A stretch of 63,858 nt of DNA, counting the filler, from Sandaracinaceae bacterium (GTDB lineage Bacteria > Myxococcota_A > Polyangia > Polyangiales > JADJQN01): NCBI GenBank assembly GCA_947483975.1. It is 2 parts of 2 records of this genome, joined end to end, with 100 filler letters (N's around TTAATTAATTAA, not from the genome) between each part and the next. Parts side by side here need not be neighbours in the genome. Positions count along the whole stretch, not along the records: positions 31,993 to 63,858 come from CANKOL010000018.1; 1 more part is not named here. One strand, written 5' to 3'. A program made the position numbers and the translations under genes. Position 1 is the first letter of the stretch, and each line of letters starts with the position of its first letter. Below are positions 36,688 through 58,064 of the stretch, piece by piece. The notes below the pieces were generated by a model that did not search any database, was not told the DNA's origin, and saw only the letters and a list, made by a program, of their open reading frames with translations.

Positions 36688-38193
36688 ATGACGCGCACCC
36701 GACTCGCCCTGCTGCTCTCCCTGGCCGCCGCGCTTGCTCTTCCCGCCTGCGCCAACGACGACTTCCCGAACGCGCCCGCGCCGAACCTCGACGGCGAAGA
36801 GCCGCTCTCGCCCCTCGACTCGCTGGTCGCCGGCGCGCCCTCGAACGACACGCTGCCCGAAGAGGGCAAGGCCGACGCCGTCTACCCGCACCAGTTCGAC
36901 CTCGTCGCGTCGCAGTCGCCCGTGCGCAACCAGCGCAGCCGCGGCGTCTGCTCGATCTTCTCGACCGTCGCGCTGATGGAGAACCTCTACATCACCGAGG
37001 GCACGGTCACGAACCCCGACTTCAGCGAGCAGTTCCTGCAGTGGTCCACGAAGGCCGAGGCGGGCTCGTTCACGACGACCGAGGGCTCGAGCGCAGAGAA
37101 GAACCTCGACGCCATCCACCGCTTCGGCATCGTCGCCGAGAGCGCGTGGGGCTACGAGCCGACCAAGTGGACGACCGCGAACGACGCCGCGTGCACGGGC
37201 ACGACGATGCCGGTTCGTTGCTACACCAACGGTGAGCCGCCCGCCGCCGCGCGCGCCGCGCTGCGCTACGACCTGCCCGTCGGCCGCTGGCTCAACTCGC
37301 GCACGGCGAGCATCAAGGCGCATATGTCGACCAAGCACACCGCGGTCGTCGTCGGCGGCACCTTCTTCTACCAGGCGTGGAACCACGGCGCGTCGGGCCT
37401 GCCCGTCAGCTCCGCCTACAAGCGCAAGGGCTACGTCCTCTACCCGAGCGACGAGGACAAGACCGACAGCCGCGCGCACCCCGCGGGCCACTCGGTCCTG
37501 CTCGTCGGCTGGGACGACGACCTCACCGTGCAGCGCCTCGACGCGCACGGTCAGCCGATGGTGGACGCGTCGGGCCGCCCCGTGACGGAGAAGGGCTTCT
37601 TCCTCTTCAAGAACAGCTGGGGCACGGGCAGCTTCGGCGTCGAGAACCCGAAGGGCGACGGCTACGGCTGGATCTCGTACCACTACGTCCAGGAGTTCCT
37701 GACCGCGTACGTCAGCGACCTGCCGACCCTCGCGACGCCCGCCGAGAACTGCACGAACACGCTCGACGACGACCACGACGGCAACGCTGACTGCGCCGAC
37801 AGCGAGTGCGCCTCCGCCCCGGCGTGCGCGCCCGTCTCGACGACCACGACCCACGCGAGCACGACCAGCGTCGCCATCCCCGACAACACCGCGGCGGGCG
37901 TCCGCAGCACGCTCGTCGTCGCCCCCGGCGGCACGCTGAGCGGCGTCACCGTCGACGTCGACGTCACGCACACCTACCGCGGCGACCTCCTCGTCAAGCT
38001 GACGCACCCGAGCGGTCGCGCGGTCGTGCTCCTCGACCATCAGGGCGCGGGCGACGACAACATCCGTCAGTCCTTCACGGTGACGACGCTCAACGGTCTC
38101 GACGCCGCCGGCACCTGGACGCTCTCCATCGCCGACACCGCGCGCGCCGACACCGGCACGCTGAACTCCTGGCGCCTGACCGTCGCGCGGTAG
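36688..38193 (+). CDS. Papain-like (C1) cysteine peptidase lipoprotein with a C-terminal proprotein-convertase P domain
   Basis: NQRSRGVCSIF, GHSVLLVGW, KNSWG; P domain HTYRGDL...GTWTL...GTLNSW; lipobox LPAC. Confidence 0.88.
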   Translation: MTRTRLALLLSLAAALALPACANDDFPNAPAPNLDGEEPLSPLDSLVAGAPSNDTLPEEGKADAVYPHQFDLVASQSPVRNQRSRGVCSIFSTVALMENLYITEGTVTNPDFSEQFLQWSTKAEAGSFTTTEGSSAEKNLDAIHRFGIVAESAWGYEPTKWTTANDAACTGTTMPVRCYTNGEPPAAARAALRYDLPVGRWLNSRTASIKAHMSTKHTAVVVGGTFFYQAWNHGASGLPVSSAYKRKGYVLYPSDEDKTDSRAHPAGHSVLLVGWDDDLTVQRLDAHGQPMVDASGRPVTEKGFFLFKNSWGTGSFGVENPKGDGYGWISYHYVQEFLTAYVSDLPTLATPAENCTNTLDDDHDGNADCADSECASAPACAPVSTTTTHASTTSVAIPDNTAAGVRSTLVVAPGGTLSGVTVDVDVTHTYRGDLLVKLTHPSGRAVVLLDHQGAGDDNIRQSFTVTTLNGLDAAGTWTLSIADTARADTGTLNSWRLTVAR

Positions 38194-43928: not shown

Positions 43929-45779
43929 ATGAAGGCGCTCATCAAGGTCGGCTACGCGTGCAACGAGCACTGCACGTTCTGTCACACGATGGATGTGCGG
44001 CACATCGACGGCGACGAGGCCGAGACGCACGCGAAGATTCGCCGCGCCAAGGCGCTCGGGCACACGATGGTCGTGCTCTCCGGCGGCGAGGTCACCATCC
44101 GCCCCGAGCTTCTGCGCTGGGCGGCGCACATCGCGTCCCTCGACCTCGACCTCGGCCTGGTCACGAACGGCCGGCTGCTCGGCTACGACGACGCGCTCGA
44201 GAAGCTCGTCGCGCAGCGCCTCCGCTACGTCTACATGTCGCTGCACGCGGGCACAGCGAAGGTGCACAACTCGCTCATCCGCGCGGACGGCTTCGACGAG
44301 GCCCTCCGCGCGATCCGCAACGTGCACGCGCGGCCCGAGATCGAGCTGACGATCAACTGCGTCGTGACGCGGCAGAACGTCGAGCAGCTGCGCGCGCTCG
44401 TCGACCTGCTGCTCCCCTTCGAGCGGCTCGTGCTGAAGTTCTCGATGCTCCAGCCGAAGGGCGGCGGCGACAGGCTCCTCGAGCAGCTGGTGTCGCGCGT
44501 GACGCACGTCGCCGAGCGCGTCCGGGACGCGATGGAGTACGGCCAAGCGCAGGTGCGCGCGCGCGGCGCGAGCGGGCCCTCGTTCACGCACGACGGGCTC
44601 CCGCTCTGTTTGCTGCCGGGGCACGAGGGCGCCTTCGACGACCTGCGCACGGACGGCTTCGCGACGATGGTCGAGGTCGGCGAGCCGGACTTCTTCCCGG
44701 TCGATGACCACGACAAGGTGCAGCCCGAGGCGACCTGCGGGGCGTGCGCGCTCCGTGGACCGTGCCCCGGCTTGTTCCGCGGCTATCTCGAGGCGTTCGG
44801 CTCCGACGAGCTGCGTCCGCCGCCTCCGCAGGCGCGCTCGAACTCGTTTCACTACGTGCTCGAGACCCTCGTCGCGACGGACGCCGCGCCCGGCTTCTGT
44901 CCGCTGCGCGACGGCGAGGAGGGCGTGACCCCCTGGGATCGCGGGCGGCATCTCTTCGTGCGCAACGGCGCCCGCATCGCCCGCTATCGCACCGAGACTC
45001 GAGACTTCGCGGACGTCGAGCTCGTGCGCGTCAAGCACGAGCTCGCGCAGGTCTACGCCGATGTGTCGAGGAAGGCCGCGCCCGACGACTTCGCCCGCGA
45101 CCTCGTGCAGCTCACGCGGAGCCCGCTCTGCGAGGGCTGTCCGGTCGAGCGGACCTGCACCGGGATGTTCGAGCCGCGCCTCGAGGACGTCTTCGGGCGC
45201 GATGACGCCGTCGTGCGGACGCTCCTCGGCGCGCTCGAGGGGCGCGTGCTCGACGTCGGCTGTGGTGAGGGGCCCTATGACGAGGTGCTCGCGCCGCGGG
45301 CGCAGGCAGGTGCCATCGAGTGGGTCGGGCTCGAGCCGGACGCCGCCGCTTGCGCGCGCCTCCGGGAGCGACGTCCGTGGGGCGAGGTGCGGCAGGGCAC
45401 GGCGGAGGACGCGCGCCTCGAGCCCGAGTCGTTTGACCACGTCCTGGTGCTGCGGAGCTGGAATCACCTCGCCGATCCCGTCGCCGCCCTCACGCGCCTG
45501 GTGTCGGCGCTTCGGCCGGGCGGCACGCTCACCCTCGTCGACAACGTCGCCTTCGCGCTCGCGCGCACGCGGCCGCAGGCGCGCCTCGCGGAGCGCTCGA
45601 CGGCCGCGTTCGAGCACCATCGCAACGACGACGCCACAGCCGCGGCGCGCCTCGTCGAGCAGGCGCTCGCGACGGACGTTCGGTTGCGCTTGAGGCCGCT
45701 CGAGCGCCGCGACGTAGGGCCCGGCACGTCGAATCAGTGGCTTCTGCGCTACGAGCGCGCCCTGCCCACGCTTGTGTAA
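43929..45779 (+). CDS. Radical SAM protein fused to a C-terminal class I SAM methyltransferase
   Basis: CNEHCTFC, SGGE, VTNG, SLH; two CxxC-x5-C-x-G motifs; VLDVGCGEG...FDHVL...WNH. Confidence 0.9.
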   Translation: MKALIKVGYACNEHCTFCHTMDVRHIDGDEAETHAKIRRAKALGHTMVVLSGGEVTIRPELLRWAAHIASLDLDLGLVTNGRLLGYDDALEKLVAQRLRYVYMSLHAGTAKVHNSLIRADGFDEALRAIRNVHARPEIELTINCVVTRQNVEQLRALVDLLLPFERLVLKFSMLQPKGGGDRLLEQLVSRVTHVAERVRDAMEYGQAQVRARGASGPSFTHDGLPLCLLPGHEGAFDDLRTDGFATMVEVGEPDFFPVDDHDKVQPEATCGACALRGPCPGLFRGYLEAFGSDELRPPPPQARSNSFHYVLETLVATDAAPGFCPLRDGEEGVTPWDRGRHLFVRNGARIARYRTETRDFADVELVRVKHELAQVYADVSRKAAPDDFARDLVQLTRSPLCEGCPVERTCTGMFEPRLEDVFGRDDAVVRTLLGALEGRVLDVGCGEGPYDEVLAPRAQAGAIEWVGLEPDAAACARLRERRPWGEVRQGTAEDARLEPESFDHVLVLRSWNHLADPVAALTRLVSALRPGGTLTLVDNVAFALARTRPQARLAERSTAAFEHHRNDDATAAARLVEQALATDVRLRLRPLERRDVGPGTSNQWLLRYERALPTLV

Positions 45780-45839
45780 GCGAGTCGCGCTCTGCTAGCC
45801 TGGCTCCCCAGCGCGGCGAACGCGGAGGAGGTCGTACGC

Positions 45840-48173
45840 ATGTCACGCACCCTGAGATCCATCGTCGGGCTCGGCTTCACGCTCCTCGTCGGAGCGTCCA
45901 CTTTTGGCTGTGCGGGTGGCTCGAAGCCCCCCGTCAGGCCGGGCGATGGAGGCGTGCGTGATGGCAGCCTCGACGGCAGCGCGGACGGCGCCGTCGACCT
46001 CGGGCCCGTGGAGGTCGATGCAGGCGCCGATCTTGGGCCGACCACCCGCGTCGGTACGTGCGAGTCGTGCGAGACGAGCGCCGACTGCTACCCGAATTCC
46101 TACTGCGCTCTGCTGACGACGGGCGGTCGCGCGTGTCTGCCGAGCTGCAACCCCGACCTGCCGATGTGTCCCGCCGGCTTGAACTGCACGCTGAGCGCTG
46201 CGCTCGAGGTCGACGAGTACGTCTGCGCGCCCCTCGGCGGGCTCTGCTGCGTCGACGAGGACCGCGACACCTACGGCCAGGGCGTGGGATGCGTGGGGAG
46301 CGACTGCGACGACGCCAACGCCGACATCAACCCCGCGGAGCCCGAGCGCTGCAACGGCATCGACGACGACTGCGATCTGGCCGTCGACGGGACGATGACC
46401 GACTGCGTCACCGGCATCTGTCGCCCGAACGCGGGCATGCCTGGTACCTATGAAGACATCCGCAGCGCGATGTGCACGGACGCGATGTGCACGAGCGGCA
46501 CGCTGACGTCCTGTGGGCTCTTCAACTGCGAGCTCGGCATGGGCCTCGGGAGCCGCTGCGCGCTCACCTGCCCGTCGACCGCCACGGACAACACGGGCAA
46601 CGAGCTTTGCGTCGACGCTGCTCACTGTGACGGAACTGCGTGCCTCGCGGACCAGCCGAACGGCGGCGTGTGCGACGAGGACTCCGACTGCTCGGCGGGC
46701 CACTGCGACAACGGCTTCTGCTGCGCCTCGGGGCAGTGCTGCAGCACCGCGACGGACTGCAGCGGTGGCACTGGCGCCGTCTGCGAGACTCCCCTGACCT
46801 GTCAGGGCACGCGCGGGGACATCACGTGCGAGTCCAACATCTGCGTCATCGCATCGGGGGTGCCGGACGACAGCGCGTGCGACAGCGGAACCATCGCGCG
46901 CGACTGTGGCCTCTTTCTGCCCGTCTACTGCTCCGGCGCGGCCACGCAGACGGCCCCCGCCTGTGCGACGAGCTGCACGACGGACGCTGGCTGTATCCCG
47001 ACGGGCCACTGTGAGGTCGGCGTCTGCGCGCCGGATCGTCCGCCGGGCGGCTCCTGCTCGCGAGTCCAGGATTGCCAGGACGGCAACTCCTGCGTCGATG
47101 GCGTCTGCTGCATGACCGCGTGCTCGGGCCAGTGCGAGCGCTGCAACGCCCCCGGCACGGCCGGAACCTGTACGCCCGTCGGGGGCGGCCAAGACCCCGA
47201 CTTGGAGTGCCCGGGCTTCTCCTGCTCCGACTACTACGCGGGCTTCGACGGGCTGGGCGCTTGTCATCGCCGGGCACCGATCAGCAACGACGCCGCCGTC
47301 TGCAACGGGGCTCGCGCCTGCCTCACGCCCGCCGAGCTTTGCGCCGTGTCGCCCGCCGGCACAGAGGTGCAGATCGACTGCGACGACGTCTGCCAGAGCA
47401 CGACCGCGGGCACCTGCAACGGCACGACGCCGGGCGCGTGCACCGACTCTCCTCCCGGAAGCCAGACCTGCGGTTTCGGCGCGTGTATGACCACGTCGCC
47501 GCGCTGCAACGCCGGCACCCAGGTCACGTGCATCGCGGGGATGAGTTCGCCGGAGGCCTGCAACGGCATCGACGACGACTGCGCCGGCGGCGTCGACAAC
47601 GCGCCGGTCGTGTCGATGTGTCCCGCGACCGCGAACGTCGCGACCACGTCGTGCGGCGGAGCGGCAGGCTGCGCGATCGCCGCCTGTAACTCGAACGCCG
47701 TCGACATCGACGGTGCCTACGCGAACGGCTGTGAGTGCGTCAACGAGGGCAACGGCAACGCGTGCGGCTCTGCGACCTCCCTCGGCGCCATCGGAGTCGG
47801 CGGTTCGGCCAACACGCTGACGAGCTCCATCGCCGTTTCGGGCGCCAGCGATTACTTCTACGTCACGTTCCCGGCGACCGGCTCGCCTGGAGGCGGCACC
47901 CCACACGTGCGCTTCACGCGCAACGACGGCTCGATCTTCCGGTTCGAGATCACGAGCGGGTGCCCGTCGGCCCCGCTCCCATGCGGCATCGCAGGCAGCG
48001 GCGGAGTCGCCACTGGCCGTGACGACTGGTCGTTCGTCGACGACCAGGCCGCCCCCGGCCCCAATCAGTGGAACGTGCGTAACACGGCGTGGCCGGCGGC
48101 CGTCTATGTGCGCGTGTATCGCACGACCTCCGGGGCGAGCTGCAGCCAGTATCAGTTGACCGTCACGCGCTGA
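45840..48173 (+). CDS. Cys-rich surface lipoprotein, paralog of 22959-27206
   Basis: Lipobox-like TFGC, DGG linker, DCDDANADINP / CNGIDDDC motifs; shares the N- and C-terminal domains of the giant protein; GGAGG RBS. Confidence 0.85.
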   Translation: MSRTLRSIVGLGFTLLVGASTFGCAGGSKPPVRPGDGGVRDGSLDGSADGAVDLGPVEVDAGADLGPTTRVGTCESCETSADCYPNSYCALLTTGGRACLPSCNPDLPMCPAGLNCTLSAALEVDEYVCAPLGGLCCVDEDRDTYGQGVGCVGSDCDDANADINPAEPERCNGIDDDCDLAVDGTMTDCVTGICRPNAGMPGTYEDIRSAMCTDAMCTSGTLTSCGLFNCELGMGLGSRCALTCPSTATDNTGNELCVDAAHCDGTACLADQPNGGVCDEDSDCSAGHCDNGFCCASGQCCSTATDCSGGTGAVCETPLTCQGTRGDITCESNICVIASGVPDDSACDSGTIARDCGLFLPVYCSGAATQTAPACATSCTTDAGCIPTGHCEVGVCAPDRPPGGSCSRVQDCQDGNSCVDGVCCMTACSGQCERCNAPGTAGTCTPVGGGQDPDLECPGFSCSDYYAGFDGLGACHRRAPISNDAAVCNGARACLTPAELCAVSPAGTEVQIDCDDVCQSTTAGTCNGTTPGACTDSPPGSQTCGFGACMTTSPRCNAGTQVTCIAGMSSPEACNGIDDDCAGGVDNAPVVSMCPATANVATTSCGGAAGCAIAACNSNAVDIDGAYANGCECVNEGNGNACGSATSLGAIGVGGSANTLTSSIAVSGASDYFYVTFPATGSPGGGTPHVRFTRNDGSIFRFEITSGCPSAPLPCGIAGSGGVATGRDDWSFVDDQAAPGPNQWNVRNTAWPAAVYVRVYRTTSGASCSQYQLTVTR

Positions 48174-48240
48174 AGTGGGTGGGCGCAGGTGGCGCCCCCT
48201 CCGCCACGCTTCTGCGCACCGCCCCCATGAGATTCCCGAA

Positions 48241-48777
48241 ATGACGTCTCCGCTCCAAGGTATTCCGTCCGAGCTCGCGGCCGCCGATCTCAACTCAGGC
48301 GCCGTGCAGCTCAGCGTCGATGCGCAGCTCTATCCGCTCGGCGCGATCTACGCTGCCTCCTACGTCTTTCTCGACCGCTGTTATGTGCTGCTCGATCAGC
48401 CCGCTGAGCACCGTGTCCGCGTCACCCTGACCCCGAAGAAGGGGCCCGCCGACGAGGCGCTGCTGCGCGCGTTCGTCGGTGAGTTCTCGAACGAGCTCCT
48501 CTCGGCGGCCTGGCGGCAGCAGATCGCGCAGGAGAATCGTGCGGTCATCGAGATGGTCACGTCCCAGGCGATCTCGGCCGCGATGGGTCCGCCTTCGCTC
48601 GATGACCTCGCGGCGTTCGACTTCGGCGACGAGGCGTTCGAGGACCCGCTCGGCATCGCGATGAGCTGGGAGGAGAAGTACAAGAAGAAGGACCCCGCCG
48701 CCGCGACTGCTCCGGCGGGCGCTGAGACCTCGGCGAAGCCTGACACCGGCGCGCCCGAGCCCGAGGGCTCGCCGTGA
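48241..48777 (+). CDS. hxsD: His-Xaa-Ser system protein HxsD-like
   Basis: LYPLGAIYAASYVFLDRCYV...GEFSNELL...RQQIAQE resembles HxsD; located just upstream of the HxS-repeat peptide. Confidence 0.7.
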   Translation: MTSPLQGIPSELAAADLNSGAVQLSVDAQLYPLGAIYAASYVFLDRCYVLLDQPAEHRVRVTLTPKKGPADEALLRAFVGEFSNELLSAAWRQQIAQENRAVIEMVTSQAISAAMGPPSLDDLAAFDFGDEAFEDPLGIAMSWEEKYKKKDPAAATAPAGAETSAKPDTGAPEPEGSP

Positions 48778-48995
48778 CCGAGCTGCGACTGCACCGCTCG
48801 CTCTACGCCGGTACGGCGGTCGACGCGGCGGTGAAGACGTATGCGCGCTTCGCGGCCTTCGAGCTGGTCGAGGAGGCGACTCACTGGGTCGTGCGCGTCA
48901 CCGCGAAGAGCGTCGCCCGCGAGACGCAGATCGCCCACGAGCTCGCGAACTACGCTCTCGGTACGACCATCCGGGAGCGCGGAGCCACGCCCTAA
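48774..48995 (+). CDS. Second, minimal HxsD-like protein (73 aa)
   Basis: LYAGTAVDAAVKTY...HELANYAL parallels the upstream protein; GTGA overlap. Confidence 0.62.
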   Translation: MTELRLHRSLYAGTAVDAAVKTYARFAAFELVEEATHWVVRVTAKSVARETQIAHELANYALGTTIRERGATP

Positions 48996-49078
48996 CCGTC
49001 GCTCACCGCGCCGTGGTCGACGCCGCGAGCGAACATCTCACTCTCGAGGTCACCAACGCCGAAGTCAGTACCGAGCGC

Positions 49079-49108
49079 GTGACACGCCTATTCTTTTCGA
49101 TGTAAAGT
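49079..49108 (+). promoter_or_regulatory. Putative sigma70 promoter for the precursor peptide gene
   Basis: GTGACA-N18-TAAAGT in a locally AT-rich stretch; GGAG RBS before the ATG at 49135. Confidence 0.5.
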
Positions 49109-49134
49109 AACTTCCCACCCACTGGAGCACGAAC

Positions 49135-49422
49135 ATGGCAGGACCCGGCGTCAGCGGATCGGACGACAAGGCAGGCGACGATGAGCCCCTGCCAAGCTTC
49201 AAGGCCGACGTCTCAGGGACGCTGTCCGACGAGCAGCGCAGCGTCTCGGCGCGGGCGCTCTCGGCGGCGGACGATACTGTGAAGGGCGATCCAAGTGGCG
49301 CGCAGCGGAGTGGGCAGCACTGCTCGCACGGCTCGCACGGCTCGCACGGCTCGCACGGCTCGCACGGCTCACACGGCTCGCACGGCTCGCACGGCTCACA
49401 CGGCTCGCACGGCAGCTGGTAG
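49135..49422 (+). CDS. hxsA: His-Xaa-Ser repeat precursor peptide (HxsA-like RiPP precursor), 95 aa
   Basis: Acidic ~61-aa leader-like region, then HCS-(HGS)10-W-stop; RBS present; flanked by HxsD-like and radical SAM genes. Confidence 0.85.
49318..49416 (+). repeat. 9-bp tandem repeat encoding 11 His-Xaa-Ser units
   Basis: CACGGCTCG units; variants TCA and AGC are synonymous Ser codons; the first unit is CACTGCTCG. Confidence 0.95.
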
Positions 49423-50523
49423 TTGGCCTCCGGGGCTGACGTGGTCGCGCGCATCGTTCAACGGACGGGCGGGGGCAACGACGAGGGGGCGGCCGCGAGC
49501 ATCGATCAACGGATCGCTGCGAAGCGCGAGCGCGTCCACATCCTCACGGGTGAGGTCTGCAACAACAACTGCACCTTCTGCATGGAGGAGGATCGTGACG
49601 GACGCAAAGTCACGAACTCTGCCACCAGCGATGAGTCGGTGCGGTGGATCCTCGAGCAGAGCGCCGACTGCGAGGAGGTGTGCTTCACGAGCGGTGAGCC
49701 GACGACGAATCCTCGTCTGCCCGTCTGGGTGAAGATGGCGCGAGCGGCCGGCGCGCGCCGTGTGAGCGTGATGACGAACGGTCGCGCGCTCAGCAATGAG
49801 CGCTACGCGAAGGGCCTCGTCGCCGCGGGCATGAATCGCTTCTACGTGTCCATCCACGGGCACGACGAGAAGCTCCACGAAGGGCTCACGCGCACTCCTG
49901 GCAGCTTCGCGCAGACCGTGGCGGGCCTCGAGGTCATCCGCTCGTTGAAGCGCTACGGCGTCGACCTGCACACGAGCACGGTGGTCACGAAGCGGAACCT
50001 GCCGCACCTCGGCGAGATCTATCGTTTCCTCCGCGGTCATGGCGTCGACCAGGTCGTGTTCAACGTCATGCAGGCGAACGGGCGGGGCGACACCTATTTC
50101 GAGCAGCTTTTCCCCGCCTACACGGACATCGCGGCGACGGCTGAGGCGTTCTTCGCAGAGCAGGCTCTGCGCGCGAAGGCGCCGGGCGCGGAGGCGCGCA
50201 CCATGGCCTTCCTCGTCGATATCCCGCTGTGCACGACGACGCGCCTGCCCGACTTCAATCGCGGCTACGTCGAGTCCTACGTGCACTACGAGCCGCCGAG
50301 CGACGCTCACGCCGCGCTCGGCGTGGACCTCGCCGAGGCGCGCAGCGCGGGCTCCGGTGGAGGGCTCGTGCAGCTTCGCAGGAGCGACCTCGACGAGGCC
50401 GCGCGGCAAAAGCGCCCAGCCTGCGCGACGTGCAAGTACGACGCGGTCTGCGAAGGCGTGTGGGGAAACTACACGAAGCGCTTTGGGTGGGACGAGTTCG
50501 TCCCCGTCGCTTCGGGCGACTGA
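49423..50523 (+). CDS. Radical SAM protein (HxsC-like candidate maturase)
   Basis: [26 protein letters not shown]...[12 protein letters not shown]. Begins immediately after the precursor stop (start TTG 49423 or GTG 49441). Confidence 0.9.
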
Positions 50524-50579
50524 TTCCATCGATGGTATCCTCGGCCGGCACCGCCGACTCATTCGGTGAGGGAGGCCCC

Positions 50580-50924
50580 GTGGAGCGCGAACTTCTTCTA
50601 CGCATCTCGGAACAGCTACGTGACCTCGAGCGCCGACTCGCGGTGATCGAGCGCGAGCGCGGACCAGCCCGGGGGCGCCCCGAGGAGTCCCACGGCGGTC
50701 CCTTCGAAGGCGAGCCGTGGAGCGAGAAGCGCCTCATCGACCGCATCGTCGACCTCGTCGAGGAGCGCTTCGTGCGAGTGCTCTCGCGACACCGGCACGA
50801 CGCTCACTGTCACGAGTCGCGCGAGCACGGCGACCGGGGGCACGAGCCTCGCGGGCGCGATTTTCATGGTGGTGGCGGGTGTCGTGAGTGCGGCGACGCG
50901 CACACCGAACGCGCTCGCCGATAA
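50580..50924 (+). CDS. Small coiled-coil protein with a His/Cys-rich C-terminus
   Basis: GGAGG RBS plus GTG; LRDLERRLAVIE; HRHDAHCHESREHGDRGH...CREC. Confidence 0.6.
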   Translation: MERELLLRISEQLRDLERRLAVIERERGPARGRPEESHGGPFEGEPWSEKRLIDRIVDLVEERFVRVLSRHRHDAHCHESREHGDRGHEPRGRDFHGGGGCRECGDAHTERARR

Positions 50925-51019
50925 CCTCTCGCGTCGCGCCGTGTTTGCGGCGGAGCCCTCCGGCACGGTACCGTGTGCTCCGAGACAGGCGCGCTCGGCG
51001 TCTCTCTTCAGGAGTCCCC

Positions 51020-52042
51020 ATGCGTGCTGCGGTGCTGTCGTCGGTAGTGCTCCTGCTCTCGCTCGCGGCGTGCGCGAGCGGCGTCGGCGGTGAGGCTGAC
51101 GCCGCCACTCCGCCTGCGAGGGACCTCGGTCCGCGCGATGGAGCGGTCCGCGATGGCAGGGTGCCGACTGATATGTCGGGCGGCGACCTCTGCGTCGGCA
51201 TCGTGTGCATGGCCTTCGAGTACTGCGACCGGGGCTCCTGCCGCAACTACGGCCCGTGCACGCCCGCCGGCGGCTGCGCGGCGGCCAGCGACGTCTGTCG
51301 CAATCGCTACTGCGTGCCCCGCACGAGCGACGTCGATGGCGATGGCGTCACGGCCGACACCGACTGTGACGAGACCAACGCGATGATCGCTCCCGGCGTG
51401 CCCGACACCTGCAACGGCCTCGACGACGACTGCAGCGGCACACCGGACGACGGTGCACCGCGCGTGCTCTGCCCGGCCGGCATGGGGGAGTGTCTCGCGG
51501 GCGTGTGTGGCTGCCCGCCGGGGCGCTTCGATCTCGACGCCAACCCGGACAACGGCTGCGAGTGCGCCGGCGAGCCCGCCGACCGGGTCGGGTCGAGCTG
51601 CGCGGCGCCCCAAGATCTCGGCGACATCGCCGACACCCCTCAGACGCAGACCGTGTCGGGCAACGCGCTGCCGGTAGGGCGCGAGGTCTGGTACCACTTT
51701 CGCGGAGTCGACTCCGCGGACACGAGCTGCGACGCGCTCCACGTGCGCGTCCAGTTCCTCACCAACCCCGACAGCAGCTTCGAGTTCACCGTGTTCCGCG
51801 GCGCGTGCGGCACGCTCCCCGAGGGCTGCACCGACACGGGCTATCAGGACTTCTCGTTCTCTACCGACTTCTCGACTGGGGCCGGCTCCACCGGAGAGTG
51901 CCCCTGCACCGTCACGCCGACGGCCGGCGCGAACGTGTGCGGGGACGAGACCGCCGACTACTACGTGCGCGTGCGGCGCGTCGCCGGCGTGCCGGTGACG
52001 TGCGCGAGCTACTCGCTCGAGCTGTCCAACGGCGTGTACTGA
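51020..52042 (+). CDS. Cys-rich lipoprotein, short member of the same paralog family
   Basis: AGGAG RBS; lipobox LAAC; DCDETNAMIAPG, CNGLDDDC, NGCEC; C-terminal YYVRVRR...CASYSL. Confidence 0.82.
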   Translation: MRAAVLSSVVLLLSLAACASGVGGEADAATPPARDLGPRDGAVRDGRVPTDMSGGDLCVGIVCMAFEYCDRGSCRNYGPCTPAGGCAAASDVCRNRYCVPRTSDVDGDGVTADTDCDETNAMIAPGVPDTCNGLDDDCSGTPDDGAPRVLCPAGMGECLAGVCGCPPGRFDLDANPDNGCECAGEPADRVGSSCAAPQDLGDIADTPQTQTVSGNALPVGREVWYHFRGVDSADTSCDALHVRVQFLTNPDSSFEFTVFRGACGTLPEGCTDTGYQDFSFSTDFSTGAGSTGECPCTVTPTAGANVCGDETADYYVRVRRVAGVPVTCASYSLELSNGVY

Positions 52043-52048
52043 GCGCGG

Positions 52049-53824
52049 TCAGCGCGCCGCAGAGCTCGACGGCACGGGCTGCATGAGTTCGTAGCCGTGC
52101 GCCCGGACGTAGTTGATGTGCAAGCCGCTGCACGTGTCGACGTGCGCGCAGGGCTTGCAGCGGAGCGACTTCGTCCGGTAGCGCTCGAGGATGTAGCGCT
52201 TGGTGTAGCGGAAGATCTCGAGCTGACCGGCCGCGTCCATCATCGCCGTGTCGAGCACCTCGCGCTCCTCGCGCGGCGCTCGGCCGGTGACGCACGCGGG
52301 GACGCCTTCGACGGGCACTGCGGCCGTGAACGCGGCGAAGAAACTCCCTAGCTCCACGTCCTTCTCCCGGCACTCCGTCAGACGCTCGTAGGTCGGCTGC
52401 ATCAGGGTGAGGCGCGCGGGCACCGGGGCGAGCGTGAGGAGCCACTCCGCGGTCTCCTTGGAGAGCGCGACCTGCACCTCGAACTCTGCGTGGAGGGCGA
52501 GCATCGCCACCGCGTCAGCCGGGCGTCGAACGAGCACGCGCGCGAGGCGGCGGCCGTCGAGGCTGCCGTCCGTCGTGAGCGCGTCTGCGAGCCCCGCGTA
52601 GTCGTCGAGCTCGAGCTCGAGCTCGAGCGCGCTCGCGCCGGGGAAGCGAGGCAGCTCAGCGAGCGCTTGCCGGAGGCTCGGCGCCGCGACGCGCAGCGTG
52701 TCGGCTCCCGCCGCGACGGCGAGCTGCGCGGGGCTGAGCAAAGGCGGCCGCGCAGCGGCGCCGCCGGGTGCCATGGGCAGCCCGACGCGACCATCTGCGC
52801 GGCGCGCGCTCGCCGGATCGCCCCCGAACACCGGGCTCTGCTGCGCCTCGTACTCGGTGTCGACGCGCACGACCTCGAAGCGCTTCGTCGCCACGGTCTC
52901 GCCCACGGCGTCGAGCGTGTCGCAGAACTGCTCGAGGTAGCAGTACTTGCACCTCGCCGGATCGCGACAGTCGAGCGCGACGCCGTCGTTGAGCAGCGCC
53001 GAGAATTCCTGCCGCCGACCGCGGACCTCGTCGGTGAGCTTGTACGGGTCCTGAATGAGGTGCTCGAAGCCCTCGAGGTGCTTCGGCGGGAAGCGATTCA
53101 TCCAGAGGTGCACGTCGGGCCGCCGCGAGAATTCCAGGGCCTCGACGAGGTAGGGCTGCATCGCCTCGAGGTCGTAGAAGAGCGTGTCGCGCCCGTCGGT
53201 GAACGCACGCCCGAACGGCACGACCTGCAGCAGATCGAACTCGCGCACGCCCTTCTCGTAGAAGCTGCGGAGCATCTCCGGGACGTGCTTCACGTTCGCG
53301 CGGTTGATGACGATGTCGACGTTGACGATCGGGCGCCCGTCCGCGAAGACGTTGTCGAGCCCGCGCATCTCCTCGTCGAAGGCGCCCTGCACGCCGACGA
53401 GCGCGTCGTGGATGCGGGCATTCGGTCCATGCAGGCTGAACGTGATCTCCGAGAGGCCAGCGTCGAGGCACTTCTTCAGGAACGGCGCGTACATGAACAT
53501 CCGACCGTTCGTCACGGTCTGCACCTTCCGATAGCCCGCGAGCGCACCCAGCTTGATGAACGCGACGTAGTCGGGGTGCATCGTCGGCTCGCCGCCCGAG
53601 AGGATCAGCCGCTCGGCGCCCTGTCGCCGTCCCTCGAGGATCTGCTCTTTGATCTCCTCACGATTGCGGATCTCACCGTCGTGCGTATCCGAGTCGAGGC
53701 AGAAGACGCAGCGGTTGTTGCAGTCGTAGGTGAGGCGCACCCAGTTGCGCTTCTCGTGCGCCGCGTCCTCGTGTCCGCGGAGCTTGTCCGAGCCCGTCGC
53801 CGCCCGCGTTTCTTCAGAGAGCAT
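52049..53824 (-). CDS. Radical SAM protein with a long C-terminal extension
   Basis: CNNRCVFC, SGGEPT, VTNG, SLHG; internal CKYCYLEQFC; terminal VPAC...CKPCAHVDTCSG. Confidence 0.9.
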   Translation of the reverse strand: MLSEETRAATGSDKLRGHEDAAHEKRNWVRLTYDCNNRCVFCLDSDTHDGEIRNREEIKEQILEGRRQGAERLILSGGEPTMHPDYVAFIKLGALAGYRKVQTVTNGRMFMYAPFLKKCLDAGLSEITFSLHGPNARIHDALVGVQGAFDEEMRGLDNVFADGRPIVNVDIVINRANVKHVPEMLRSFYEKGVREFDLLQVVPFGRAFTDGRDTLFYDLEAMQPYLVEALEFSRRPDVHLWMNRFPPKHLEGFEHLIQDPYKLTDEVRGRRQEFSALLNDGVALDCRDPARCKYCYLEQFCDTLDAVGETVATKRFEVVRVDTEYEAQQSPVFGGDPASARRADGRVGLPMAPGGAAARPPLLSPAQLAVAAGADTLRVAAPSLRQALAELPRFPGASALELELELDDYAGLADALTTDGSLDGRRLARVLVRRPADAVAMLALHAEFEVQVALSKETAEWLLTLAPVPARLTLMQPTYERLTECREKDVELGSFFAAFTAAVPVEGVPACVTGRAPREEREVLDTAMMDAAGQLEIFRYTKRYILERYRTKSLRCKPCAHVDTCSGLHINYVRAHGYELMQPVPSSSAAR

Positions 53825-53870
53825 GGGGCAAGGATACCGGCGGCGACCCCGATCCGGTAGGATGGCGGCG

Positions 53871-56153
53871 ATGTCGGACCGAATTCGCGCGCTCGTGGTG
53901 CACCCGCCAACCACGGTGTCGCGCGACTTCATCGACTACCCGTACTTCGCGGACCTCGGCGCGGTGCAGCTCGCCGCCGTCCTGCGTGAGGCTGGGCACG
54001 AGGTCGCGCTCGCCGACGCCTACGCGTTTCCGTCGTCGACTCTGCGCCCGCGCGACGATGGGCGCCTGCACCTCGGCGCGCCGGTGGAGGAGGTCGTCGC
54101 TCGCGCTCGGGCCTCGTTCGGCGATGCTGCGCCCGGGCTCGTCGTCGTCGCGCTCACGCCGTTTCATCGCCCTCCCGCCCGTGACGAGGTCCTCGGCGAG
54201 GTGCTCGCGGGCCTCCGCGCGCTCTGGAGCGACGTGCCCCTCGTGCTCGCCGACTGCTACCAGTCTGGCCAGCATTACGTCGAGTCCACGGAGTCCGCGA
54301 TCTTCGGTTCTTACCCGGAGCTCGACGCGTGGGTGAAGTACGAGGCGGAGCTCACCGTGCCCGCGCTCGTCGAGGCGCTGAGCGCGCGGGGCGAGCGCCC
54401 GCGCGGCGCCCATCGCGGAGCCTCTCCGGTGCTCGACGCGCTGCCCTTTCCCGCGTGGGACCTCGTCGATCTCGACGCGTACTTCGCGTTTCACGCGCGC
54501 GTCGTGCAGCACCTCGGGCGCAGCCGCTGGGCGTTCCCCATCGACGGGCGCACGCTGCCGCTCCTCACCTCGCGCGGCTGTCCGTTCACCTGCGTGCACT
54601 GCTCCTCGAACCCGGAGCGCGCGCCCGGAGCGCCGAAGACGCAGCGCCGCTACTCGGAGCCGCGCCTGCGGGCGTATCTCGAGACGCTCGTGCGCGTGCA
54701 CGGGGCGACGCGCCTCGAGCTCCTCGACGAGCTCGTCAACGTGAACGAGCGGCACTTCGACGCCGTGCTCGAGCTCATCGACGAGCTCGGCGTGCGCTTC
54801 GATGTGCCGAACGGGATGCGCGCGGACTACCTCGAGCCGCGGCACTTCGCGCGGATGCGCGGCAAGGTCACGACGGTGAGCGTCAGCGCCGAGAGCGGCG
54901 TGCAGCGCGTCGTGACCGAGGTCGTGCACAAGCAGCTCGATCTCGCGTGCATCAGCGCCGCGGCGGAGTACGCGCAGGCGGCGCGGGTCCCGCTGATGAT
55001 CCACTGGATCATCGGGTTTCCTGGCGAGAGCGCGGAGGAGATCAACGGCACGCTCGAGCTCGCGCTCGACCTCTTCGAGCGCTTCGACGCGATCCCCGCG
55101 GTGCAGTTCGCGACGCCGCTCCCGGGGACGCAGCTCGCCGAGGGACGCGCGCTGCCGGTCGTCAGCGACTGGGGACCGGCGTTTCAGCGGGTCCCTTCGC
55201 AGCCCGGGATGTCGGTCAGCGCAGAGGAGCTGCAGCGCTTCAAGTGGACCTTCGATCAGCGCCTGCGCGCCTCGCGCGGGCCCGAGAAGCTGATCCTCAA
55301 CGTCACCTACGTCTGCAACAACCACTGCACGTTCTGCGCGGTCGGGACGCGCACGCAGGTGGACGGGGACTCTGGCCGTCAGCGCAACCATCTCCTCAAG
55401 TACCGACGCGCTGGCGTGCGCATGGTGGACTTCGATGGTGGCGAGCCGACGCTCCATCCGGAGCTGGTGCCGCTGGTGCGCTATGCGCGCCGGCTCGGCT
55501 ACGAGCGCGTCACGGTGACGACGAACGGCCGGCTCTGCGCCTACGACGCCTTCGCCAAGCGCCTCGCGACGAGCGGCGTGACGACGCTCCTCTTCAGCCT
55601 GCACGGGCCCGACGCGCAGACGCACGCGCAACAGGTCGGCGTCGCGGAGGCGTTCGATCAGGCCGTGGCGGGCATCGAGAACTGCCTGCGGCACGCGCCG
55701 CCCGGGGTCGAGCTCGGCATGAACGTCACGCTGACGAAGGGGAACTACCGCAAGCTCGGTGCCCTCGCGCAGCTCTGCTTCGACCTCGGCCTACGCTGGC
55801 TCAACATCCAGTTCCTCACGCCCTTCGGCCGGGCGACGCGCTCGGTGAACCCGGACACCCGCGACGCGGCCGACGTCACGATGCGCGTGATCGATGAGTG
55901 GAACGATCGCCTCCGCTTTCAGGTGATCAACCTGCCGTTCTGCTTCATGCCCGGCTACGAGAAGTACCTCACCGGGGACCTCGCCAAGCTCTCGCGGCAT
56001 ATGATCTTCGTGAACGACGAGGACGTGAACCTCGGCGACTATCTCGCCGCGCGCCGCAAGCACGGAGTCGAGTGTGCGTCGTGCCCCCATCGGGTGTTTT
56101 GCGGGGGATTCTACGAGCTCGAGGATGTCCCCGAGCCTCCCTGGCTGTTCTGA
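53871..56153 (+). CDS. Double radical SAM protein: cobalamin-dependent-type rSAM fused to an HxsC-like rSAM
   Basis: N-terminal LVVHPP...LGAVQLAAVLREAGHEV (B12-binding-like), TSRGCPFTCVHC, ESG, IIGFPGE, TPLPGT; then a second domain CNNHCTFC, GGEPT, TTNG, SLHG, CASCPHRVFCGG. Alternative start 53862. Confidence 0.9.
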   Translation: MSDRIRALVVHPPTTVSRDFIDYPYFADLGAVQLAAVLREAGHEVALADAYAFPSSTLRPRDDGRLHLGAPVEEVVARARASFGDAAPGLVVVALTPFHRPPARDEVLGEVLAGLRALWSDVPLVLADCYQSGQHYVESTESAIFGSYPELDAWVKYEAELTVPALVEALSARGERPRGAHRGASPVLDALPFPAWDLVDLDAYFAFHARVVQHLGRSRWAFPIDGRTLPLLTSRGCPFTCVHCSSNPERAPGAPKTQRRYSEPRLRAYLETLVRVHGATRLELLDELVNVNERHFDAVLELIDELGVRFDVPNGMRADYLEPRHFARMRGKVTTVSVSAESGVQRVVTEVVHKQLDLACISAAAEYAQAARVPLMIHWIIGFPGESAEEINGTLELALDLFERFDAIPAVQFATPLPGTQLAEGRALPVVSDWGPAFQRVPSQPGMSVSAEELQRFKWTFDQRLRASRGPEKLILNVTYVCNNHCTFCAVGTRTQVDGDSGRQRNHLLKYRRAGVRMVDFDGGEPTLHPELVPLVRYARRLGYERVTVTTNGRLCAYDAFAKRLATSGVTTLLFSLHGPDAQTHAQQVGVAEAFDQAVAGIENCLRHAPPGVELGMNVTLTKGNYRKLGALAQLCFDLGLRWLNIQFLTPFGRATRSVNPDTRDAADVTMRVIDEWNDRLRFQVINLPFCFMPGYEKYLTGDLAKLSRHMIFVNDEDVNLGDYLAARRKHGVECASCPHRVFCGGFYELEDVPEPPWLF

Positions 56154-56252
56154 GCGTGGCGGTGAGCCCACGGCGCCATCGTGCCGAAGCCGGTGGGGGC
56201 GGGTTCTGTGGCGTGTGTCTCGTCACGGAATCGCAGCCGAGCGAGGTCAGGC

Positions 56253-56282
56253 TTGACCGCCGCGGACTATTCCACATAGAGT
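56253..56282 (+). promoter_or_regulatory. Putative sigma70 promoter
   Basis: TTGACC-N18-TAGAGT upstream of the Tat-protein gene, which has a GAGGAG RBS. Confidence 0.5.
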
Positions 56283-56325
56283 GAGAAGGTCTGTGTGGCC
56301 CCGGGGTCGCAAAAGAGGAGAGCCT

Positions 56326-56886
56326 ATGGCGAGCGTGAGAGACCGTGACGCAGATGTCGGCGCGAGCGAACCGGTGGCCTCTACCCGTCGGACCTTCCTC
56401 CTCATGGCGGGAGCGGCCTCGTGCGCCGCGTTGACCCATGGCACAGCGCAAGCGCTGTCCCCGAAGTCGAAGGCCCGGCGAGCCGCTGGCCAGGTCGCTC
56501 CGAGCGCAGCTGAGAGTCACGCGCTCATGCAGATGCTGCCGCCGGGCTTCGAACTGCACACCTCGAAGGTCGCAGCGGTGCATCCAGTCAAGCTCGGTGC
56601 CGTCGCGGTCGTGATGAGCCGTGCGGACGGCAGCGTCTTTCAGCTCGACGTGCTGCGCCGGTCGGAGGGCGATGGTTCCATCGCGCAGTCCTCGGGCTGC
56701 AGCGTGTTCGCGGTCAACGGCGGAACGGGCGCGTCGGCGACCTCGGAGCCCGATGGCCTCGCCGCGATGGCGCTCGCGCGCACGCTTGGCTCTGCAGAAG
56801 CGGCCGGGATGCCGGCGCTCGCTCTGCTCACGCACGGAGAACGTGCGCTTCGCAATCCGGCCGGCGCGTTCCGCGTCGTACGCTGA
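56326..56886 (+). CDS. Hypothetical protein with a twin-arginine (Tat) signal
   Basis: STRRTFLL, a hydrophobic stretch and an AQA cleavage site; strong RBS. Confidence 0.72.
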   Translation: MASVRDRDADVGASEPVASTRRTFLLMAGAASCAALTHGTAQALSPKSKARRAAGQVAPSAAESHALMQMLPPGFELHTSKVAAVHPVKLGAVAVVMSRADGSVFQLDVLRRSEGDGSIAQSSGCSVFAVNGGTGASATSEPDGLAAMALARTLGSAEAAGMPALALLTHGERALRNPAGAFRVVR

Positions 56887-56936
56887 CGAGGCAGGCGTTC
56901 GCCCTCCGCTGAGGAAGGCCGACGCTGGAAGCTCCC

Positions 56937-58064
56937 GTGGTCTCGCGCGGCATCGTCACGTTGACGCTGGAGTGCCCTAACGCGTGCATCTTCTGCGCGC
57001 AGCGGGGACTCGCGCCGCGACCTGAGCGCTCGCTCGAGGACGTGCGCGCAGCGCTGCGCGCGCTCCGCTCGGAGCAGCAGAGCGTGGTGCTCGCGGGCGG
57101 TGAGCCGGGGCTCCTCGAGGCGCTCGAGGAGCACGTCCGCGCTGCGCGCGAGGAGGGCTTCCTGCGCGTCGGCGTGCAGACGAACGGTGCCGGGCTCGTG
57201 GATGTCGAGCGGCTGAGGGGCCTCGCCAACGCCGGGCTGACGGACGTGCACCTGAGCGTGCACGGCGCCGTCGCTGCCGTACATGACCATCACACCGGCG
57301 CTCCCCTCAGCTTCGAGCGCGCGCTCGCCGCGCTCGCCGCAGCGCGCGCAGCCGGGCTCTCCGTCGCCGTCAGCACGGTGCTCACGCGCTCGAATTTTCG
57401 TGTGCTCGACGGGCTAGCGACGTTGCTCGTCGCGCGAGGCGCGTCCGCGTGGTGCGTCTCGGTCCCCGTCGTCGCGGGGCGTGCACACGAGAGCTTCGAC
57501 CGCGTCGTGCCTCGCCTCGGGCTCGCGTTGCCGTTTGCGTTGCGGGCCCTCGTCGCCGCTCGGGCGCGGGGACTCGCGGCGTTCATCTCAGGAGCGCCGC
57601 TGTGCCTGCTCGGACCACACGGCGGGATGAGCGTCGTCGGCGCAGAGTCGAGGGCGTACGGCGCGCCCTGCGTCGAATGCCCTGCACGCGCGGCGTGCCC
57701 GGGCGTCGACGCGACCTACCTCGAGCGCTTCGACGGCGACGAGCTTGCGCCGCGCGGCACGCTCGTGAGTCCGCTCGCGGACGAATCAGCCCGCCGACAA
57801 GCGGCGATGTTCGTCGGTGCCGGTGAGCGGGCGCCACTGCAGGTGCGCGTCGCGGCGTCGTCTCCCGCCAAGGCGCGGCGCGCGCTGCCGACGCTCGGCC
57901 GAGGACAACCCGCCGCCGCCGAGGTCGGTCGCGGCGAGCGCCGTACGGGCGAGGCCATGCGAGCGCTCTTCCCGACGCTGTTCGCCGACCGCGAGCCGCC
58001 CGCCGCCGACCTCACGAGCGGACAGGCGCCCACGGACGACGGGGAGCGCGAGCCGAAGGACTGA
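56937..58064 (+). CDS. Radical SAM protein, divergent
   Basis: CPNACIFC, GGEP, QTNG, SVHG...HD; APLC...CVECPARAACPG. Confidence 0.85.
   Translation: MVSRGIVTLTLECPNACIFCAQRGLAPRPERSLEDVRAALRALRSEQQSVVLAGGEPGLLEALEEHVRAAREEGFLRVGVQTNGAGLVDVERLRGLANAGLTDVHLSVHGAVAAVHDHHTGAPLSFERALAALAAARAAGLSVAVSTVLTRSNFRVLDGLATLLVARGASAWCVSVPVVAGRAHESFDRVVPRLGLALPFALRALVAARARGLAAFISGAPLCLLGPHGGMSVVGAESRAYGAPCVECPARAACPGVDATYLERFDGDELAPRGTLVSPLADESARRQAAMFVGAGERAPLQVRVAASSPAKARRALPTLGRGQPAAAEVGRGERRTGEAMRALFPTLFADREPPAADLTSGQAPTDDGEREPKD

Follow-up and report, generated by a model that had tools for sequence, protein, structure and literature searches.

What is made from a short peptide that ends in ten consecutive His-Gly-Ser (HGS) units and is encoded among five genes for radical S-adenosylmethionine (rSAM) enzymes, and does the machinery around it belong to a known system? 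The question is raised by a locus at positions 43929-58064 of a 63,858-nucleotide stretch of DNA (hereafter the window) from assembly GCA_947483975.1 of a Sandaracinaceae bacterium; the window joins parts of two records, and positions 31,993 to 63,858 come from CANKOL010000018.1. A first, sequence-only reading of this DNA had proposed a distinct, larger myxobacterial variant of the His-Xaa-Ser (HXS) system, making a heavily modified His-rich peptide. The HXS system was itself an orphan bioinformatic prediction for fifteen years before an anti-phage role was assigned to it. Here we find that the locus is real and under selection, and that its core, as judged from curated sequence profiles, is a member of a catalogued, unstudied type-4 Hxs variant and is not new. 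The whole probably serves type-4 Hxs maturation in a freshwater myxobacterium that is uncultured: rSAM enzymes would modify a His-rich peptide repetitively, guided by its leader. What is distinctive is the packing of all four accessory rSAM genes into 14 kb and the missing HxsB.

Four proteins carry this assignment, each scoring above the cut-off of its NCBIfam model. The precursor peptide HxsA4 (49135-49422, + strand) reaches 63.3 bits against NF038313 (cut-off 55), and the 366-residue rSAM enzyme HxsC4 (49423-50523, +), whose gene starts at or just past the HxsA4 stop codon, 600.2 bits against NF038332 (cut-off 500). HxsD (48241-48777, +; the open reading frame (ORF) opens at 48175, the likely start being the ATG at 48241) scores 57.6 bits against TIGR03976 (cut-off 50). 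A 73-residue HxsD-like protein (48774-48995, +), whose start overlaps the HxsD stop by 4 bases, scores 76.1 bits against NF038315 (cut-off 41), so that both of the expected HxsD-type genes are accounted for. The smaller of these aligns with the HxsD core at a probability of 88.9% (hhalign, E 2.4e-6) and appears from its sequence to be a truncated HxsD paralogue; the acidic C-terminal tail FDF..DPLGIA.SWEEKY, conserved in HxsD (alignment A3), is absent from it. Scores against the canonical HxsC model TIGR03977 (cut-off 267.9) do not exceed 87.9 bits (for the accessory protein G9; 82.6 for HxsC4), and the canonical HxsA model TIGR03979 is not among the four families that HxsA4 matches at E <= 0.01.

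The proposal of a distinct, larger variant thus stands in one part: the locus has more rSAM capacity than the four-gene system, but it is not uncatalogued, since NCBIfam models for its core exist. All four core proteins conform to the NCBIfam type-4 set, and hxsA4 adjoins hxsC4 as in 54 of 80 relatives; the window differs from that set in lacking HxsB and in carrying five proteins (G1, G9, G10, G11 and G12, described below) that pass no curated model. We found no paper naming HxsA4 or HxsC4, and none on HGS repeats; in the literature on genome mining for peptides made on ribosomes and modified after translation (RiPPs) of the rSAM type in myxobacteria, Hxs occurs in no title or abstract opening among the matches listed. 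Sequence searches of the PDB with HxsC4 and G10 returned generic rSAM-core matches only (E ~1e-9).

Translation bears out the predicted 95-residue peptide with an HCS-(HGS)10-W end, consisting of a 61-residue acidic leader (pattern LPSF...EQRSVSARA...AADD) followed by the repetitive core. The underlying 9-bp tandem repeat (49317-49413, +) was resolved by TRF as 10.8 copies with 94% matches, its units differing from each other only by TCG/TCA. With a 15-residue maximum hydropathy of 0.09, HxsA4 has no hydrophobic segment and no signal peptide; it also lacks a peptidoglycan-binding domain, and its core contains neither Lys nor Arg. A leader motif (LPxF...QRxIS.RA...AD), a core of the form H-x-S-(HGS)n and a terminal Trp are kept in all 33 aligned peptides (alignment A1). 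Among 47 cleanly delimited family members the number of units ranges from 9 to 21 (median 14), and the first unit is HCS in 38, HGS in five and HAS in four. The core in the window, with 11 units, lies at the short end of this range. The figure of ten HGS units lacks an independent check, as public contigs break inside the 9-bp repeat.

Several further observations concern hxsA4 itself. Contig depth over the repeat (49242-49375) is several-fold above that of the flanks in lake metagenome runs (196 vs 23 in run X4), most simply explained if other organisms sampled there carry the same 9-bp repeat. Upstream of the gene lies an A+T-rich stretch, TATTCTTTTCGATGTAAAGTAACTT (49085-49134), unusual in a 70% G+C genome, and GGAG is found 8 nt ahead of the start codon; these may represent a dedicated promoter and ribosome-binding site, respectively. 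Neither feature is conserved in 13 relatives, and an alignment of 14 upstream regions revealed no conserved regulatory element, nothing being shared apart from the hxsB tail. Three Sandaracinus-like loci (L070, 9307-9945; L072, 9313-9951; L073, 7646-9962) carry a tandem pair of HxsA4 genes, differing in repeat number (13 and 18 units), with one HxsC4 gene downstream.

The association between peptide and enzyme was assessed in relatives, obtained by an HxsC4 search of one-genome-per-species contigs that found 165; all locus counts given here use the best 80 of these 165. The 80 proteins are 61-71% identical to HxsC4 and are all myxobacterial, their hosts belonging to Nannocystaceae, Polyangiaceae, Sandaracinaceae, Archangium and unclassified myxobacterial metagenome-assembled genomes (MAGs). 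An ORF with at least four HxS units is present in 57 loci and immediately precedes hxsC4, in the same orientation, in 54 of those; as in a RiPP pathway, the precursor has a conserved leader, a core distinct from it and modifying enzymes encoded alongside. The other 23 loci have no adjacent peptide gene. Five genomes of this kind were tested, and each holds one HGS-repeat locus elsewhere (in Minicystis rosea, just after hxsB), a reversed control pattern giving 0 matches. The repeats of these five genomes mix TCN and AGY serine codons, which argues for selection on the peptide and not on the DNA repeat. No alternative His-rich precursor ORF was found within 700 nt upstream of hxsC4 in 22 loci without an adjacent HxS gene (the search required 600 nt of upstream sequence, which excluded L071, with 211 nt).

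HxsD orthologues occur in 36 of the 80 loci and HxsD-like genes in 33. Five named Nannocystis species have the same local arrangement, which, together with 61-71% identity of HxsC4 maintained across several myxobacterial families, makes the system look vertically inherited, unlike a patchy defence island. An even sample of 151 Myxococcota genomes contains HxsC4 above cut-off in nine and sub-cut-off relatives in 12 more (21 in total). A sister family of HxsC4, scoring 313-390 bits (cut-off 500) and sometimes present in two copies, was noted in 12 of the 151 genomes (G020, G026, G044, G050, G066, G071, G081, G086, G121, G126, G136 and G151).

How might such a core work? The canonical HxsABCD system of Escherichia coli (E. 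coli) and other Pseudomonadota is an anti-phage system that blocks phage DNA entry (Li et al., Nat Commun 2026, PMC13128918); with a function and a modification now published for it, the earlier statement that no characterised product was known is outdated. According to that report, maturation of HxsA requires HxsB, HxsC and HxsD and comprises N-terminal processing and a gain of +8 Da on S-H-R-S-S; HxsC binds HxsD; and function is tied to the HxsA signal peptide, its peptidoglycan-binding domain and about five basic HxS repeats (PMC13128918). The same report places 99.7% of HXS systems in Pseudomonadota, gives more than 99.8% of them four genes and describes the operon order D-B-C-A (PMC13128918), whereas the order in the window is G1, G2, hxsD, hxsD-like, hxsA4, hxsC4 and further genes beyond. 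What the locus has in common with the E. coli system, as described there, is an HxS-repeat substrate, an HxsC-type rSAM enzyme partnered by HxsD, and cytoplasmic maturation. It differs in that HxsA4 is a 95-residue leader-core peptide with 11 neutral units and no export or anchoring signal, and in that the window lacks HxsB and contains one more HxsD-type gene and four additional rSAM genes. A useful model for iterative modification of every unit is the poly-cyclopropylglycine TVGG peptide, which likewise has a short motif repeated in its core and rSAM genes nearby (PMC9062424), although the enzyme families and the motif are different. In the sequence similarity network of that study HxsB and HxsC form clusters of their own, with no product reported for either in the portion available (PMC9062424).

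We propose that HxsA4 is made on the ribosome as a precursor with a conserved acidic leader and the core HCS-(HGS)10-W, and that HxsD and the HxsD-like protein would present it in the cytoplasm to HxsC4 and, should the genome encode it, also to HxsB. HxsC4 would then perform radical chemistry on each His-Gly-Ser unit, likely akin to the reaction that adds 8 Da to S-H-R-S-S of E. coli HxsA. Further steps could be added by the four other rSAM proteins, with their four HxsC-paralogous domains, class-B-type domain and methyltransferase; methylation at C or N and additional cross-linking are plausible among them, and each of the ~11 units would be processed repeatedly. The product might finally work with, or pass to, the envelope proteins of the cluster, namely the Tat-signal protein G11 and the Cys-rich proteins G2 and G8. 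The type-4 chemistry and its product are here proposed from family membership and the E. coli precedent. That HxsC4 and HxsD act on HxsA4 we consider very probable; that the accessory rSAM enzymes act on the same peptide is a closer call, falling a little short of probable.

The missing HxsB sets the window apart from its relatives, in which a ~500-residue protein encoded between hxsD-like and hxsA4 is a true HxsB (576.5 bits against TIGR03978, cut-off 370). HxsB is present in 41 of the 80 loci and above cut-off exactly once in each of five whole large genomes, in two of which it is encoded 22 kb and 400 kb from HxsC4. HxsD occurs without HxsB in none of the 36 related loci, the window being the only such case. 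A tblastn search of the 63.8-kb window with a relative's HxsB gave a best E of 0.31, and TIGR03978 is not in the best 25 NCBIfam families of any rSAM protein of the window. The site of the 1.5-kb hxsB of relatives is here a 139-bp spacer (48996-49134). In this spacer and the adjoining end of the hxsD-like gene (48961-49134), three-frame local alignment with 13 HxsB C-termini revealed no detectable remnant: the scores, 28-32, were reached by 31 to 91 of 200 shuffles, depending on the frame. Contigs of two public runs from lake water (X4 and X5, with 0 and 3 differences) span the junction between hxsD-like and hxsA4, and one of the runs comes from a separate study, so that the HxsB-less arrangement is not an artefact of one assembly. 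Because relatives keep HxsB, sometimes far from HxsC4, it is most likely encoded elsewhere in the source genome. The earlier remark that no HxsB-like enzyme could be recognised is accurate for the window but, given its frequency in relatives, does not describe a trait of the myxobacterial variant.

Besides HxsC4, four accessory rSAM genes lie in the locus. G1 (616 residues; 43929-45779, +) combines an HxsC-like rSAM domain with two CxxCx5C motifs and a C-terminal class-I S-adenosylmethionine-dependent methyltransferase, the latter matching PF08241 over residues 441-534 (54.1 bits), as the suggested methyltransferase fusion requires. G9 (52049-53824, -; ORF to 53932) is an HxsC-like rSAM protein whose long C-terminal extension has a second CxxCx5C at its end. 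In G10 (53862-56153, +; ORF opening at 53730) a class-B-type domain (Rossmann fold plus rSAM barrel) is fused to an HxsC-like rSAM domain, and G12 (375 residues; 56937-58064, +) is a further HxsC-like rSAM protein. The count of five rSAM genes with six CxxxCxxC motifs was reproduced in full, the motifs starting at C11 in G1, C46 in HxsC4, C71 in G9 (ORF 52049-53932), C284 and C529 in G10 (ORF 53730-56153) and C13 in G12; all five proteins match PF04055, with 69-97 bits (68.7 for G1, 76.4 for G9 and 72.8 for G12). The best NCBIfam model of each of the other four rSAM proteins is that of HxsC4, at 87-112 bits, far below the cut-off of 500 (86.6 bits for G1; 100.2 for G12, which reaches 72.3 with the HxsC model, also below cut-off). 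The five HxsC-like domains are 25-33% identical pairwise and have in common a C-terminal CxxCx5CxG...(F/H)G.(D/E)E motif. None gives a SPASM family match (PF13186, a seven-Cys motif) at E <= 0.01, the HxsC-like domains holding only the CxxCx5C triad. The enzymatic inventory is therefore HxsC4, four HxsC-paralogous domains and one class-B-type domain.

Orthologues of these genes recur near HxsC4 in relatives. Within 10 kb of hxsC4, orthologues of G1 and of G12 were each found in 28 of the 80 loci, those of G11 in 14, of G9 and of G8 in 13 each, of G2 in 11 and of G10 in 10; by our own estimate, which no tool computed, a given single-copy gene would fall by chance within 20 kb of a ~10-Mb genome in ~0.2% of cases. 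G1 orthologues are 45-62% identical, and of the 24 loci holding both G1 and hxsD, 18 have G1 as the immediate upstream neighbour in the same orientation. Where G11 and G12 occur together (13 loci), they are adjacent and codirectional in 12, and G9 and G10 are adjacent in all six loci that hold the two; orthologues of G9 and of G10 are each present in all five whole genomes. These sub-modules occur in many different orders: in locus L100, G10, G9, hxsC4 and a G1-like gene stand in a row with hxsA4 5 kb off, and Nannocystis punicea keeps all sub-modules, spread over four chromosomal sites.

Side observations bear on how the accessory genes are built. The C-terminal half of G1 (Cys-rich linker and methyltransferase, residues ~270-610) occurs as a stand-alone protein in some genomes (G002:C1:14630172-14632837, G131, G102 and G107), which makes G1 a fusion of separable parts; in Minicystis the stand-alone half adjoins a G9 orthologue. 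An Archangium MAG has a G1 orthologue with an internal TAA (G004:C1:7915046-7916821) and a G10 orthologue split into two frames (G004:C1:7855933-7858150), either through decay or through long-read sequencing errors.

The N-terminal half of G10 was modelled with AlphaFold2 (AF2) from 27 sequences, at a mean predicted local distance difference test score (pLDDT) of 90. In Foldseek the model matched MgmA (E 9.2e-16) and also TsrM, TokK, CysS, OxsB, AprD4 and MiaB, the whole-length matches to class-B enzymes ranging from E 9.2e-16 to 1.7e-10 with TM-scores of 0.54-0.61 and identities of 12-20%. With MgmA, TsrM, TokK, CysS and OxsB the predicted structure has the Rossmann-plus-barrel architecture in common, and it differs from them in the fused second, HxsC-like rSAM domain, which none of those five shows. 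AprD4 and MiaB are not known to use cobalamin as a methyl carrier. NCBIfam models of B12-type rSAM enzymes gave 41-65 bits, far below their cut-offs. As for the cobalamin-type fusion that had been claimed, the fold agrees with it, but the Pfam B12-binding match is below cut-off and AprD4 and MiaB fit equally well; going by the model, cobalamin use by G10 is plausible.

The proteins interleaved with these enzymes are mostly of envelope type. G2 (45840-48173, +) is a secreted Cys-rich protein (82 Cys among 777 residues) that carries MopE-type motifs and has its C-terminal domain in common with G8; G8 (51020-52042, +) is a Cys-rich lipoprotein of 341 residues (26 Cys) with a MopE-type motif, and PF11617 scores 32.1 bits on G2 and 32.5 on G8. 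Both had been called lipoproteins, and both are indeed rich in Cys; G8 has a canonical lipobox (LAAC), but that of G2 (TFGC), behind a signal-like N-terminus, is atypical. A full-length G2 orthologue (45% identity) adjoins hxsA4/hxsC4 in L017, and 11 of the 80 loci match its C-terminal domain; the G8 C-terminal domain is present in few copies (each of five genomes gave 0-3 matches), and in G003 the best copy lies beside hxsC4. G7 (50532-50924, +) is an ORF of 130 residues with a His/Cys-rich tail, putatively coding, with a G+C content by codon position of 0.81/0.51/0.76. The small His-rich protein that it was taken to encode thus exists as an ORF, but its coding status finds no support in Pfam, NCBIfam or PADLOC matches, of which there are none, or in related loci, where 0 of 80 match. 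G11 (56326-56886, +; ORF opening at 56281), described from the outset as a Tat protein, carries the twin-arginine motif T-R-R-T-F-L-L, and the RR signal is kept in relatives. Its mature part folds confidently in AF2 (pLDDT 77.7). A wide VIA-align comparison placed the SMP domain of Mdm12 first (Z 6.9, root-mean-square deviation 4.7 A, 107 residues aligned), followed by SPLUNC1/BPI, Aha1 and YceB; a lipid-binding-like wrap in the modelled structure is a weak lead, Z 6.9 being within the tool's common range. The ESM Atlas gave only sub-0.8 matches, to 'Tat signal family' clusters.

A number of results weigh against this account of leader-guided, repetitive maturation, and several of them favour a narrower one, in which the Hxs unit consists of HxsD, HxsD-like, HxsA4 and HxsC4 only and unrelated pathways are packed beside it (for example, G12 maturing the Tat protein G11, G9-G10 acting on a lipid or cofactor, and G1 possibly acting elsewhere too). 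For the core itself, HxsB is absent from the window though required in E. coli, and neither a leader peptidase nor an exporter was found among the 12 ORFs (Pfam, NCBIfam) or in recurrent neighbour families. A complex prediction of HxsA4 with HxsC4, HxsD and HxsD-like lends weak support, having passed weakly on self-made alignments: it scored 0.60, against 0.34 for the best of three controls, with runs agreeing in at least 12% of contacts and partner pLDDT of at least 34; 58 of 80 solved complexes attain the mark used, as do 2 of 110 mismatched pairs, but only 7 of the 80 attain it with a score of 0.60 or less. For the accessory proteins, all four rSAM genes come together within 10 kb of hxsC4 in only three of the 80 loci (L041, L052 and L053), and 37 loci lack every one of them over that distance. 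G10-like fusions are commoner than HxsC4-like genes (38 vs 21 of 151 sampled genomes; the 38 include all nine genomes with HxsC4 above cut-off and 18 without any HxsC4-like gene), and G1 is found in just 16. At 40-42% identity such fusions are often solitary, and neither an Hxs gene nor an HxS peptide lies within 8 kb of them; full-length fusions of a B12-type rSAM and an rSAM domain stand alone in loci L085-L092 and L095-L097. AprD4 and MiaB fit the N-terminal half of G10 as well as the class-B enzymes do, Pfam B12-binding PF02310 scores 17.3 bits on G10 (cut-off 32.1), and G11 has no informative fold match, Foldseek against the PDB returning nothing at E <= 0.001. To these the narrower account can add that in N. 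punicea distances of 60 kb to 1.6 Mb separate the modules and that G11-G12 and G9-G10 are self-contained pairs. It has more difficulty with orthologues of at least 50% identity, which, unlike the 40% paralogues, adjoin hxsA4/hxsC4 in many differently arranged loci (L100, L041, L052, L053 and L070-L073 among them), with the position of G1 against hxsD in 18 of 24 loci, and with the C-terminal motif shared by the five domains, every one an HxsC paralogue. We regard it as rather unlikely, and take the accessory genes to be real partners that recur yet are linked only loosely, the G10 family being broader than Hxs; the co-occurrence of the accessory rSAM genes with HxS peptides in other genomes is thus real, but the link is not a tight one.

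What the mature peptide does is a separate matter. An anti-phage HXS system of myxobacteria, with mature HxsA4 blocking phage DNA entry in the periplasm, would explain why HxsD, the HxsC-type enzyme and the HxsB of relatives are homologous to components of the E. coli system (PMC13128918), and why envelope proteins (G11, G2/G8) are encoded in the cluster. Yet HxsA4 has no signal peptide, peptidoglycan-binding domain or basic repeats, the features to which HXS function is tied according to that report; 99.7% of the systems counted there are in Pseudomonadota (PMC13128918); and PADLOC found no specific match on the locus, giving only weak viperin-like, mad2 and PDC-M51A matches to rSAM and methyltransferase domains. 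The neighbours are, moreover, housekeeping genes, with no mobile or defence genes among the Pfam-annotated flanks, and the conservation of HxsC4 (61-71% identity across families, five Nannocystis species alike) looks vertical. Phage defence is on these grounds improbable, and we favour, tentatively, a conserved non-defence role such as envelope metal handling. A different fate for the peptide would be excision of the modified HGS units to give many copies of a small molecule or cofactor, as with PQQ or mycofactocin, though here from a repeat. The next-best NCBIfam matches of the rSAM domains after Hxs, to cofactor maturases (MoaA, AhbD, NirJ, PqqE and MftC, all far below cut-offs), point in this direction, as do a conserved chromosomal setting with no exporter and a unit number that varies freely (9-21), as expected if the unit alone matters; the lack of both peptidase and exporter leaves room for such a cofactor-like fate. 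That same lack of a peptidase, in the locus or in recurrent neighbours, also tells against it, as do the conserved terminal Trp and first H-C/A/G-S unit, which suggest that the whole core matters, and the precedent of canonical HxsA, described as acting as a protein (PMC13128918). We judge excision to be even less probable than phage defence. Returning to the non-defence reading, it can be extended to a much bolder conjecture, a long shot by our own assessment: Polyangia-type myxobacteria and some Archangium may keep a vertical, chromosomal Hxs4 'regulon' of up to eight HxsC-paralogous rSAM families, HxsB, a B12-type rSAM, a methyltransferase and sometimes a peptide hydroxylase, whose product would be a repetitively cross-linked, methylated, polymer-like poly(His-Gly-Ser) with a housekeeping envelope or metal role and not one in phage defence, and in the window the paralogues might have made HxsB dispensable.

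The +8 Da modification of the canonical system, the first to be described, is chemically unexplained. The type-4 substrate is simpler, a pure tripeptide repeat on a short leader, and is accompanied by a graded set of paralogous enzymes, a combination suited to learning how HxsC-type enzymes act on His and Ser. Since HxsA4 is without every feature linked to the anti-phage function, the Hxs machinery could also serve a second, non-defence biology. To a core already catalogued in NCBIfam, which tempers these points, the window adds an arrangement that is handy to clone, at a compact 14 kb, and a junction that naturally lacks HxsB.

The 12 ORFs (43929-58064, ~14 kb) were selected by third-position G+C, the window being ~70% G+C. 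They are bounded, as first described, by housekeeping genes: an acyltransferase gene (PF01553; 43093-43839, -) upstream and an MlaD gene (PF02470; 58102-59196, -) downstream. A papain-family protease with a proprotein-convertase P-domain is encoded 6 kb upstream (36688-38193), with no Hxs link seen in relatives. Clustering of all ORFs of the related loci revealed other genes that are absent from the window. Three further HxsC-like rSAM families occur near the HxsC4 of relatives, and an alpha-ketoglutarate-type (aKG-HExxH) peptide beta-hydroxylase (TIGR04267, 101 bits, cut-off 40) is present in eight of the 80 loci, where it was seen to adjoin a G12 orthologue (for instance in L042, 2087-3538, -). 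Downstream of hxsC4, nine of the 80 loci encode a ~760-residue protein (for instance L015, 10942-13227, and L018, 10924-13248), the C-terminus of which resembles an EAL-type domain as judged by eye.

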